A DNA stretch of 64,000 nt, taken from assembly GCF_057098645.1 (NCBI RefSeq), contig NZ_JBXSPU010000002.1. The stretch is one strand, 5' to 3'. The position numbers are program-made. Origin of the DNA: a plasmid. This document shows, piece by piece, positions 27,001 to 30,000 of the stretch (its first letter is position 1; each line of letters opens with the position of its first letter).

Positions 27001-30000
27001 GGGATCTCAATCAAATTCCTCGCCTTTCCACGTGCAGGTCTCAACTCCGTTGTCGCGGGGAATATGGCAAAAATATGGTGTGCGGCAAAACCTAATGATG
27101 CACTGGATGCCGCAATGAGCCCGACATCAACCATTCCGGAAGGACGGCCTGACGAGGCCTGCCTCGATACCATCAAATCGCATTTCCAGGTAGCTTCAAC
27201 TATTCCGCTTCAGGGTACGCCAACGATGGTAACGCTGTCGGGGAAACCTCAGCTATTCACCGGTTGGATGAGCCCGGAAAATCTGGTGACCCGCATGGGT
27301 GCCGAACAAAAGTGACTTTCCACGACTGCAAGAGGTGTTTATGAAATCTGCAATACTGACAACGTTAATGCTGGTGGCGGTTGGTTCTCAACCCGTCTTT
27401 GCTGCCAAATGCCAGTTCGGGGCCTGCGACGCCGACACTGTGGCCAGCAGTGAGATTCTGGTATCTGCTGCTCAGACAGATAAAGACGCAGTTTTAAAAA
27501 AACTCAATGATGCGACATCCCGCAGCGACGTGATGTCGAAACGGTTTGAGTCGTATCTGAGCAATGACAGGTTAAAGGTGAACACCGACAGTACCAAGAA
27601 AGGCCCTAGCAATGAAATCGCTAAGCCGAGGGATGAGTTGGCGCCGGTAAGGCAGCTGAAAGCCATTCGCCCCGAGCTGGTACAAACACCCATCTTCCAG
27701 CCCATTGTTGCGTTCTATGAACGTCTGGCCTGAGTGCGTCGCTGGGGGTTAGAAGATGTCGCTTTGGCTCAGCATTGTCACCCGGGCAACGGGATTGCCG
27801 GATAAGCGGTATTTAAATGATCCGGTGATCCTCCGTTATTACCAACAAAAGATCCAAAAGGCTCCTTACGCCCTGGTGGGATGGACTCTCTGTTTCATGG
27901 CAACCATTGGTGTGTCGCTGGGACTGGATCTTTCCAACCAGATGTTACTTCTCGTTCTGCTGATATTGATCTTTCTGATGGTGGTGCTCCAGGGGCGGTA
28001 CCAGTTCATGCATCCGGAAAGATGTATCAATGCCAAATTTTACCAAACGGTGCTGGACGATGCGTCAGTCTCAGATATTCAGAAAGCTCAGTTTGAATAT
28101 CTCTTCGTGACCAAAGTGGATGAGCTGACCATCGGTGATCTGTACCGACTCTATGATTTCAACAGAGGAGGCCGGTAAAGACGTGGCATGCAGGTGAGAA
28201 AAGTTAATTTGTGGTTGGTCGTTACAGTGCCGGTCATCAGTTCCAGGGGACCGAGGCGACGTAGTTTCCGGAGCGCAGCGGGGCATCCAGATTCCCGGTC
28301 AAAGCGTCAATCATTGCGGAATACGCCACGCTGTCCGATGGGATCGGCGCATTGCTCTGCATACTGACTTTAAGCACCTGCTGTGCATTTTTTCCCGCAG
28401 GGTAGACTTCCACATCAAGACGACGCCAGAAATGTCTTTGTGATACCGTCTCTGTTCCTACGATCCCACTGACCGGCTTATAGTCATAGTCCGTCTCAGT
28501 TTGCCCGTGCTTATCTTTTCGCGTTGTTTTCTTCTCGATAACATATCCGGTTATTCCCGTCACCGGTAGTTCACTGTATTGCAGATTCTCCTGGGTCTTG
28601 CTGTAACTGAATCTGAGAATATATTCGGGCTGATGGCTGGAAATATTAAACCCCTTACCCGTTAATCCGCTCGCAAACCGGGCTGCAAACATTCGCGACT
28701 GAATACTGTCATCCGGAGCAACAATTTCAAATTTCTTGCTGCCTACCGGGCGGGGCAGTAAATCGTACGCATCAACGTCATTTCCAAAATGATAACCGCA
28801 TCCACATAAGAACGTTGTGGCTGTTAGTAAGAAAAATTGCCGTAACATTCTAAATCCTCCAAAAAGGGTTCTTTAATGAATAATTCCGATTTACCGTGCC
28901 AGTATAATCGAACGCAGGCTGATAACTAACAAGTTGAAATGCGTAAAGGTGGCTATGATTAAATTAAATTATTTAAAACCCGTGGCGTCTGTTTTAATTT
29001 CTGCGGTGATTGCGACGGCTGGCTCTGTGTATATTACGTCGAAATATCTAAAACCCGATGTACCGGGTAACGACGAAATAGGACGAGTGGCTGCTTCCTA
29101 TCTGGTAAAAAATCCCCAGTATCTTCTCGAAGCAGGTAAGGCGCTAGAAAAAGAAAATACTAACGCTTCCCTTGAGCGGATTATCCCCTACGCACCGGCA
29201 CTCTTCGAGACCAAAGAGACACCCAATATCGGACCTGATAATGCGGCCGTCGCTGTTATTGAGTTTTTCGACTACCAGTGTCATTTCTGTATGCAGGTAG
29301 CGCCGGTTGTTGAATCTGTGTTGAGCCAAAGCACTGATGTAAAGTTCTTCTTTAAAGAATTTCCGATCTTCGCTGGCTCAAAACCCGTTTCCGCAATGGG
29401 GGCGGCGACAGGCCTGCATGTGTATCAGACATTCGGTGCGGAAGCGTATCGTAAGTATCACAACAATCTGATGACCAGTGCGTATGTATTCTTCAACAAC
29501 CAGCGTGCGTTTACACTCAATGATTTAGACATGGTTGTGAACAAATCCGGGTTCAACAGCTCATTCGGCGATCGGGAGAAAAGCCGCTATGAGAACGTTA
29601 TCTCCGGAAACATGCAGCTGGGGGAAGCTCTCGGGATTAACGGTACGCCAGGGTTCATTATTATGAACATGCAAAAACCCGACGCTGCAACGACGTCATT
29701 CATCCCGGGCGCTGTTGACGAGGCCACCCTGAAATACGCAATCCAGAAGGCCCGTGGAGGCTAAAGTTACTTTTCCTTCCGAAACTGGCCATGCCGGGTA
29801 ACACCGGCATGAACGTCAGGCTTTGACGACAAGTAACTCATTCCAGCGAGTGGTATACCGTGGGGACAGCATGGCCTGCTTCCCCCGGAAATCCTGATGA
29901 ATCCCTTCGCAAGCCAGAAACAGAGAGCCTCGATGCTCTTTGTTAAACCGATCCATCACCTTCATCAGTGCTTCACTGCCTCGCCTGGCGGGACGTTCAT

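Follow-up and report, generated by a model that had tools for sequence, protein, structure and literature searches.

A YlaC-like membrane protein and a lipoprotein beside trhG as candidate envelope accessories of the IncHI transfer regulon

The exclusion genes traS and traT lie immediately next to traG, and eexA and eexB of the IncHI1 plasmid R27 were reportedly identified in a screen of an R27 cosmid library. The exclusion activity of R27 has been attributed to eexA and eexB, located in the Tra2 "Z operon" (PMC7366339 supplement; PMC11493245), and both are reported as needed in donor and recipient alike. A second exclusion gene of IncC plasmids, sfx, went unnoticed until 2024 (PMC11493245), and the title of a 2007 paper by Marrero and Waldor, as cited in PMC11493245, places the determinants of SXT Eex in the cytoplasm. 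TraT combines an LptE-like core with a long beta-hairpin, which the authors of its structure suspect to carry specificity (bioRxiv 10.1101/2025.05.27.656304). Among chromosomal proteins, the E. coli inner-membrane protein YlaC (b0458, PF10777) is without known function and has been described only as an FtsH substrate.

The window analyzed here, a stretch of 64,000 nucleotides, comes from an IncHI1 (R27-type) plasmid; its matches at ≥99% comprise R27 and 214 further plasmids. A preliminary description had singled out two converging ORFs about 3 kb downstream of traG, encoding a two-helix membrane protein and a lipoprotein, as entry-exclusion candidates. These ORFs are genes R0133 and R0134 of R27, with the R0133 protein identical in R27, and they lie exactly where they had been placed (Table 1). 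Both start with ATG and converge across a 58-bp gap, and the end of trhG is 2.76 kb upstream of R0133, an interval that holds four genes. The anatomy, i.e., an inner-membrane protein and a lipoprotein near trhG, had thus been read correctly. No experiments on either gene were found in the accessible literature, nor has a phenotype been reported for R0133 or R0134. Scans of the window proteins against Pfam, NCBIfam, PHROGs, and PADLOC yielded only a weak DUF4136 match and no defense-system or phage family.

Table 1. Genes and palindrome copies in the trhG-dsbA region of the window
Feature	Position	Strand	Remarks
trhG	21004-24993	+	TraG_N family, 1329 aa; mating-pair gene, landmark of the preliminary description
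R0130 lytic transglycosylase	25903-26418	-	Weak Pfam SLT match, PGAP annotation; envelope-helper block
dsbC, DsbC-type disulfide isomerase	26566-27315	+	Pfam DsbC_N and Thioredoxin_2
Palindrome copy CAAAAGTGACTTTCC	27307-27321		At the 3' end of dsbC, shortly before R0132
R0132, 130-aa secreted protein	27341-27733	+	Signal peptide closely followed by a CxxxxC motif
R0133 (WP_000061015.1), 140 aa	27756-28178	+	Two-helix-hairpin inner-membrane protein, remote YlaC (PF10777) homologue
Degenerate palindrome copy GAAAAGTTAATTTGT	28198-28212		In the 58-bp gap of the converging genes; 3 mismatches, perfect left arm
R0134 (WP_000945974.1), 203-aa lipoprotein	28237-28848	-	Signal peptide and lipobox
R0135, DsbA-family protein	28955-29764	+	Pfam DSBA E 2e-23, annotation; divergent from the lipoprotein gene

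R0133 resembles YlaC and crosses the membrane with two helices. Its hydropathy profile contains a single hydrophobic block (residues 39-85), and the AF2 model (pLDDT 87.7) shows helices spanning residues 23-56 and 61-82 with a 5-residue loop between them, in agreement with the two helices initially proposed. The N-terminal (residues 1-37) and C-terminal (residues 84-140) parts are predicted to be cytoplasmic, with only the 5-residue loop reaching the periplasm; R0133 would be an inner-membrane protein whose two termini face the cytoplasm. Alignment of the 16-sequence family profile to E. coli YlaC with hhalign gave a probability of 94.2% and an E value of 1.1e-7 over 99 columns. The Pfam YlaC model weakly matched 9 of these 16 family members (best E 0.0027, below the gathering threshold) and gave no match to the window protein itself. 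In both proteins, the two-helix hairpin precedes a C-terminal domain that is cytoplasmic and carries the pattern V.D..K.Q....K.gEL...D...L, whereas R0133 has its own N-terminal (G-L-P-D-x-x-Y-L-x-x-P-V-I) and C-terminal (GDLYRLxDFN) motifs and, unlike chromosomal YlaC, was encountered solely on plasmids of the IncHI type, where it neighbors dsbC. The two cytoplasmic motifs are common to all lineages, the former as G-[LIV]-P-D-x-x-Y-L-x-x-P, and their conservation (0.68 and 0.77) exceeds that of the membrane part (0.35-0.46). An exhaustive profile search with R0133 retrieved only 20 representatives among 1.84e9 proteins and revealed no link to other plasmid families; every representative with a contig examined was located in the IncHI-type block. 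A word-indexed protein search returned close relatives only.

The lipoprotein assignment of R0134 also held. The lipobox (L14-C15-G16-C17) has L14, G16, and C17 invariant in 12 homologues (L-[SCT]-G-C), is followed by an invariant GYHF, and agrees with the PGAP call "lipoprotein." The glycine at +2 predicts outer-membrane sorting by rule, and we infer that a lipid anchor attaches R0134 to the outer membrane. Its confident model shows an LptE/PelC/DUF4136-type alpha/beta core, in which two helices pack on a beta-sheet as in LptE, extended by a long hydrophilic beta-hairpin (approximately residues 86-150) whose tip is the most variable segment of the mature protein. Foldseek searches with this model returned PelC as the best match and also LptE and CsgG. 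The sequence matched Pfam DUF4136 with 14.2 bits (E 0.063; cutoff 32.8), as did 7 of 12 relatives, with a best E of 3.7e-5. No Pfam TraT match was obtained for R0134 (E ≤ 0.1) or any of 12 family members (E ≤ 1), and the family profile had 0 matches at E ≤ 10 among all PDB sequences. With PelC, LptE, and the DUF4136 lipoprotein BT2437, R0134 has the lipobox and the alpha/beta core fold in common; it differs from them in the extra hairpin of about 60 residues, in being plasmid-borne and coregulated with transfer genes, and in having no Pel or Lpt partner nearby. With TraT (F, pKpQIL; PDB 9e2v, 9fs5, and 9fsm) it shares the LptE-like core and the long beta-hairpin at a structure-based sequence identity of only 8-12%. 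By analogy with PelC and TraT, the hairpin of R0134 probably mediates assembly into a ring. However, R0134 has none of the amphipathic transmembrane helices from which the TraT helical barrel is built and by which TraT is exposed at the surface: hydropathy revealed no hydrophobic segment in mature R0134, and the model contains only the two core helices. Surface exposure of R0134 is doubtful because such anchoring or exposing helices are missing.

Gene order around the pair has been kept in the eight other IncHI-like loci examined, seven of which carry both genes. It runs TraF-TraH-TraG-lytic transglycosylase, then DsbC-R0132-R0133 converging on the lipoprotein, and then DsbA, and recurs in IncHI2, IncHI1B-type, Buttiauxella, and metagenomic lineages, even where TrhG identity falls to 41%. 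The R0130 transglycosylase is present in all lineages examined. In the remaining lineage (L014/L015), the R0133 homologue is directly followed by dsbA, and this otherwise intact lineage has no lipoprotein; R0132 is not recognizable in L014. R0133 and R0134 are thus independent genes. Between IncHI1 and IncHI2, no protein of the block diverges faster than R0133, with 45% identity versus 58-90% for its neighbors (58% for R0132). Compared with a relative of 89-90% protein identity, dN/dS was 0.18 for R0133 and 0.12 for R0134, which denotes purifying selection. A remnant of the block was also observed in an E. coli chromosome, where tra genes are lacking altogether.

Both genes are transcribed in R27, with counts at 25/37°C of 387/363 for R0133 and 406/583 for R0134, and neither shows the temperature response of most tra genes (PMC7366339 supplement); R0135, which encodes the DsbA-family protein, is induced at 25°C. 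Removal of the HtdA repressor derepresses the pair along with the transfer genes, by 10.3-fold for R0133 and 6.0-fold for R0134, while dsbC rises 13-fold, R0132 8-fold, the neighbors 8- to 21-fold, and the Z operon 8- to 17-fold (PMC7366339 supplement). The 22-nt gap between R0132 and the R0133 gene immediately downstream suggests, by its spacing, that both belong to one operon, and dsbC-R0132-R0133 is likely a single transcription unit with dsbC as its first gene. R0133 and R0134 are therefore real, constrained, and transcribed genes of the IncHI backbone. Given an htdA response of 139 R27 genes at 25°C (PMC7366339), coregulation is weak evidence for a role in mating.

A diverged palindrome copy had been noted between the two genes, and it is indeed there (Table 1). 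It belongs to a 15-bp family, GAAAAGTWACTTTTC, with 18 matches at ≤2 mismatches in the window versus 0-4 in shuffles. The same intergenic position holds GAAAAGTCACTTTGC in an IncHI1B-type relative and a perfect palindrome, CAAAAGTCACTTTTG, in IncHI2. The copy at the end of dsbC likewise has a conserved position in relatives (L004 8542, L005 8540, and L006 11515). A terminator or small RNA between R0133 and R0134 was rejected, as the gap shows no stable fold (z ~0.4), no terminator pattern, and no Rfam match.

We give an even chance to the reading that R0133 and R0134 are two independent, noncore envelope genes of the IncHI backbone, which serve as envelope accessory genes of the transfer regulon. 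They would form part of a group of envelope "helper" genes alongside trhG that comprises the lytic transglycosylase, DsbC, the secreted R0132, R0133, R0134, and DsbA. The conserved motifs of R0133 would serve to bind either a conserved partner in the cytoplasm or a membrane partner at its cytoplasmic face, and both proteins would act in the envelope of the plasmid-bearing cell itself, in connection with mating. Neither is expected to be essential for DNA transfer. Transfer-deficient insertions are not known from the region downstream of trhG. The "accessory to mating" part of this reading is drawn from position and coregulation only.

A doubtful possibility is that both proteins assist H-pilus and T4SS assembly on the donor side. 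R0134 would then build a periplasm-facing outer-membrane ring to support or guide the secretion machinery, comparable to PelC for PelB or LptE for LptD, and R0133 would act as a membrane adaptor, either for TrhG or for a cytoplasmic ATPase of the T4SS. This would fit the PelC, LptE, and CsgG fold matches, the apparent cotranscription of R0133 with dsbC, the joint derepression of both genes in the htdA mutant, and a neighborhood of lytic transglycosylase, DsbC, and DsbA, which are classic assembly helpers. Deletion of R27 dsbC lowers transfer in dsbC-null hosts, according to work cited in PMC10838148. However, one otherwise intact lineage lacks the lipoprotein, F, SXT, IncC, and Rts1 have no counterpart of either protein, the profile search with R0133 yielded nothing but IncHI-like proteins, the Rts1 deletion study names no homologue, and a phenotype has been reported for neither gene.

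The original proposal of an F-like exclusion pair is unlikely. R0133 would provide TraS/Eex-type entry exclusion by recognizing the donor TrhG, and R0134 would provide TraT-type surface exclusion, both acting in plasmid-carrying recipients. Inner- and outer-membrane localization, the position near trhG, and expression at both 37°C and 25°C, as for the Z operon, would all suit such a role. The same can be said of the LptE-like core with long beta-hairpin that the R0134 model has in common with TraT, of the rapid divergence of R0133, and of the R0134 hairpin, whose tip is variable where the corresponding TraT hairpin is suspected of specificity. The late recognition of sfx in IncC provides a precedent for an overlooked exclusion gene. 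EexA/EexB, encoded on the same plasmid, and Sfx, from a related MOBH/MPF-F system, are, like R0133/R0134, HtdA-controlled envelope proteins that include a lipoprotein. Their exclusion activity is nonetheless published, whereas R0133 and R0134 are candidates only, and R27 exclusion has been assigned to eexA/eexB at a different locus, about 100 kb away on R27 and outside the window. BLASTP of R0132, R0133, and R0134 against the Z-operon proteins R0015-R0018 gave a best E of 0.44, and BLAST plus hhalign of the pair against EexB, the Z-operon lipoprotein, TrhZ, and the presumed IncC Sfx found nothing beyond the lipobox. SXT/R391 Eex, IncC EexC, F TraS, and R0133 are all short inner-membrane proteins (120-150 aa) whose genes lie downstream of traG, and R0133, with both ends predicted to be in the cytoplasm, recalls the cytoplasmic determinants of SXT Eex. 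Yet hhalign, in a direct comparison with the presumed IncC EexC (the traG-adjacent ORF), returned a probability of 0.1. Moreover, the presumed eexC abuts traG, whereas R0133 is separated from trhG by 2.8 kb and four other genes and lies in the likely dsbC operon; R0134, unlike traT, is not directly downstream of trhG either.

Other features weigh against exclusion as well. The best-conserved parts of R0133 are cytoplasmic motifs common to all lineages, and the protein belongs with the chromosomal YlaC family; R0134 has neither a Pfam TraT match nor the TraT transmembrane helices, and the lipoprotein is dispensable in one lineage. TrhG consists of a conserved membrane domain (residues 1-500) and a fast-evolving C-terminal half with a Gly/Ser-rich low-complexity zone (residues 596-700). 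Comparison of R0133 with TrhG segments in 7 lineages revealed no specific pairing; with fast evolution across the entire C-terminal half of TrhG, none stands out. Exclusion, a minority hypothesis, is stronger for the lipoprotein R0134. In its boldest form, IncHI plasmids would carry a second, F-like exclusion system missed by the 2008 eexA/eexB work. R0134 would be a helix-less TraT analogue whose hairpin-linked outer-membrane ring blocks mating-pair stabilization, and the YlaC-derived R0133 would intercept the incoming TrhG with its cytoplasmic domain, as proposed for SXT Eex and TraG. We consider this quite improbable; if true, the 45% IncHI1-IncHI2 identity of R0133 would define exclusion groups.

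It is rather improbable, too, that the pair is backbone cargo unrelated to conjugation, i.e., chromosome-derived envelope or stress-fitness genes (YlaC-like plus a DUF4136 lipoprotein) traveling with the plasmid. Their nearest relatives are in two chromosomal families of unknown function, YlaC and DUF4136, neither gene is temperature-responsive, and the block remnant of the E. coli chromosome stands apart from tra genes. Against this, the trhG-dsbA position does not vary among the IncHI-like lineages examined, even at a TrhG identity as low as 41%, both genes are derepressed 6- to 10-fold together with tra genes in the htdA mutant, and the R0133 family was found only in the IncHI-type plasmid context. 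Contact between R0133 and R0134 is unlikely because R0133 exposes only five residues to the periplasm, and a two-component system with direct contact was rejected for this reason and for the one lineage without the lipoprotein.

IncHI plasmids contribute to the spread of multidrug resistance in Salmonella, E. coli, Enterobacter, and Klebsiella, and many of their backbone genes are without assigned function. Our findings provide a structural and family address for two such ORFs, a TraT/LptE/PelC-fold lipoprotein and a YlaC-like membrane protein, and place both in the HtdA-controlled transfer regulon at a fixed position beside trhG. If the lipoprotein does not limit mating, the pair would be ordinary backbone; if it does, a TraT-like ring without membrane helices would suffice, and R0134 would become a new target for conjugation inhibitors. 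A pair of "hypothetical proteins" has thereby been turned into a short list of testable roles.

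R0133 and R0134 are conserved envelope genes of the IncHI backbone that are co-regulated with transfer. As the preliminary description had it, a 140-aa two-helix membrane protein gene and a 203-aa lipoprotein gene converge here; the gap between them measures 58 bp. The surrounding 1.7 kb is 100% identical to many 165- to 300-kb conjugative plasmids of E. coli, Salmonella, Klebsiella, and other bacteria. R27, the IncHI1 prototype, encodes the same two proteins (R27 coordinates in this region equal window coordinates plus 92290), and the window is the Tra1 rather than the Tra2 side of the plasmid if the two are collinear. 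In the published R27 numbering, trhG is R0128 (PMC7366339); mucB and mucA follow R0135. In a comparison with a relative whose proteins are 89-90% identical, dN/dS is 0.18 for R0133, 0.12 for R0134, and 0.06-0.08 for neighboring enzymes. Both genes are uninterrupted in IncHI2 and IncHI1B-type plasmids and are transcribed in R27 (PMC7366339). These observations, together with conserved protein features, identify them as genuine genes. RefSeq shortens them to 86 and 115 aa in the IncHI2 plasmid pTJWQ005 (L004), and a shortened gene is annotated in L005 as well. Since the full-length 140- and 203-aa ORFs are intact there, conserved N-termini and lipobox included, RefSeq has probably misplaced the start codons.

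Coordinates of the R0133/R0134 region and of related features
Feature	Replicon	Coordinates (strand)	Description
Inverted repeats	window	16119-16291	between mobI and trhR
trhG (R0128)	window	21004-24993 (+)	mating-pair gene
R0129	window	25240-25851 (-)	HAD domain
R0130	window		lytic transglycosylase
R0131	window	26566-27315	dsbC
R0132	window	27341-27733 (+)	130-aa secreted protein
R0133	window	27756-28178 (+)	140-aa protein
R0133	R27	120046-120468	WP_000061015.1
Spacer palindrome	window	28198-28212	R0133/R0134 gap
R0134	window	28237-28848 (-)	203-aa lipoprotein
R0134	R27	120527-121138	WP_000945974.1
R0135	window	28955-29764	dsbA
GAAAAGTWACTTTTC 15-mers	window	starts 354, 472, 9578, 11308, 16044, 16529, 16969, 19607, 25144, 25226, 25504, 27307, 28198, 29761, 36511, 44653, 46167, 52421	palindrome family
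Shortened RefSeq genes	pTJWQ005 (L004)	9163-9423; 9483-9830	IncHI2
Shortened RefSeq gene	L005	9482-9829
IncHI block remnant	E. coli chromosome CP010122 (L018)	8262-14520	IS-disrupted, no tra genes
290-aa lipoprotein gene	R27 (L002)	4082-4954 (+)	converges on trhN
Presumed sfx	IncC (L021)	40676-41536	beside traN

R0133 is a YlaC-like inner-membrane protein. In a confident predicted model (pLDDT 87.7), its only hydrophobic block (residues 39-85) forms two helices with a loop of 5 residues between them. Both ends are predicted to be cytoplasmic because six Lys/Arg residues precede helix 1 and a basic stretch follows helix 2. Only 20 family members turned up when 1.84 billion representatives were searched exhaustively with a profile, and all homologues whose contigs were examined lie in an IncHI-type plasmid context. 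Conservation centers on two motifs predicted to lie in the cytoplasm, G-[LIV]-P-D-x-x-Y-L-x-x-P-[VL]-I (13-27) and GDLYRLxDFN (125-137); variation is unrestrained in the membrane helices and in the very short loop on the periplasmic side. Weak Pfam YlaC matches occur in 9 of 16 members, and the family profile matches E. coli K-12 YlaC over the hairpin and C-terminal domain (94.2% probability, E 1.1e-7). YlaC itself is a chromosomally encoded protein of the inner membrane, known only as a substrate of FtsH.

R0134 carries an L-x-G-C17 lipobox and then GYHF, both unchanged among the homologues compared, and the Gly at +2 predicts sorting to the outer membrane. Its predicted model (pLDDT 87.9) packs two helices on a beta-sheet and extends a very long hairpin (about residues 86-150), whose charged tip is the most variable segment of the mature protein. 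Foldseek matched the model to PelC (E 2e-5) and TraT (E 5e-3). At the sequence level, 7 of 12 relatives matched DUF4136 (best E 3.7e-5) and none of the 12 matched TraT. Published TraT structures combine an LptE-like core, a long hairpin building the inner barrel of the decamer, and amphipathic transmembrane helices; the R0134 model has the first two, but it and the hydropathy profile lack such helices. By its model, R0134 is a lipoprotein with a TraT/LptE/PelC fold.

One gene order (TraF-TraH-TraG, lytic transglycosylase on the opposite strand, DsbC-R0132-R0133 converging on the lipoprotein, DsbA) recurs widely: besides IncHI2, it occurs on an IncHI1B-type and a Buttiauxella plasmid and on several metagenomic contigs, with TrhG identity as low as 41%. 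In one lineage (L014/L015), the R0133 homologue persists, but the lipoprotein gene is absent and R0132 is not recognizable. In the E. coli chromosomal remnant, R0133 has an altered N-terminus and lies beside IS-related ORFs; R0132, the lipoprotein, dsbA, and umuDC are also retained. Between IncHI1 and IncHI2, identity is lowest in the block for R0133 (45%), followed by R0132 (58%), R0134 (69%), HAD (72%), DsbA (75%), TrhG (76%), DsbC (84%), and the transglycosylase (86% by global alignment, 90% by local BLASTP). The C-terminal half of TrhG (residues 519-1329) diverges much faster than its TraG_N membrane domain, with a Gly/Ser-rich low-complexity zone at 596-700, where IncHI1 and IncHI2 share 32-38% identity over 40-column windows. 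Another variable zone spans about 916-1075.

Two motifs are conserved in fast-evolving R0132, CxxxxC (CQFGAC) straight after its signal peptide and RQL...PELV near the C-terminus; the protein could be a DsbC client. R0129 has the HAD domain known from 'Swiss Army Knife' RNA-repair proteins (Pfam E 2e-22), and at 25°C its expression in R27 rises 3.8-fold. Five compared loci (L006, L010, L011, L014, L019) have no HAD-domain gene called at this position, and L016 has an uncharacterized 173-aa ORF there.

The diverged palindrome reported between R0133 and R0134 is real; its left arm is perfect and its right arm has decayed. It belongs to a 15-bp family, GAAAAGTWACTTTTC, with 18 window matches at ≤2 mismatches versus 0-4 in shuffled sequences. 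The copy at this spacer position is perfect in IncHI2 (CAAAAGTCACTTTTG) and has 1 mismatch in the IncHI1B-type relative, although the spacer has otherwise diverged. A further copy lies at the dsbC 3' end in four lineages; therefore, palindromes flank R0132-R0133 on both sides. The spacer folds no better than shuffled sequence and has no terminator pattern or Rfam match. Many copies lie at gene 3' ends or in converging spacers, and three around the oriT/trhR region. Positions are kept in IncHI2 and IncHI1B-type relatives, and the family resembles an operator or a boundary element for some plasmid factor. Separately, dense inverted repeats built on CATAGGGTCACTTTT (arms up to 41 nt) presumably belong to the oriT region.

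That R0133 and R0134 are exclusion genes, as first proposed from F-like systems, appears unlikely, the lipoprotein being the stronger case. An inner-membrane and outer-membrane pair does lie close to trhG, expressed at 25 and 37°C and HtdA-controlled like the R27 exclusion (Z) operon (PMC7366339). However, R27 exclusion is credited to eexA/eexB of that Tra2 operon, outside the window (PMC7366339, PMC11493245), and the Z-operon proteins resemble neither R0133 nor R0134. The same holds for the traG-adjacent IncC ORF vcrx145 (presumed eexC) and the traN-adjacent IncC lipoprotein (presumed sfx). The TraT-like architecture of R0134 favors exclusion, but this fold also occurs in PelC and LptE, which are unconnected with it; surface exposure is doubtful because membrane helices are lacking, and the lipoprotein gene can be lost. 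R0133 diverges fast, yet its constrained parts are shared by every lineage and not specific to any, and no specific co-variation with TrhG could be demonstrated because TrhG varies along its entire C-terminal half. The R27 290-aa lipoprotein matches the presumed IncC sfx in arrangement and size but not in sequence (best BLASTP E 1.0); as a positional analogue, it is a candidate for IncHI surface exclusion.

Both proteins have been in databases since R27 was sequenced; the novelty here is their family and fold assignment. They probably act separately, since the periplasmic part of R0133 is just 5 residues long. We see about an even chance that R0133 and R0134 belong to the transfer regulon as accessory envelope genes that are not essential; on that reading, a donor-side helper role would be about as likely as any other.
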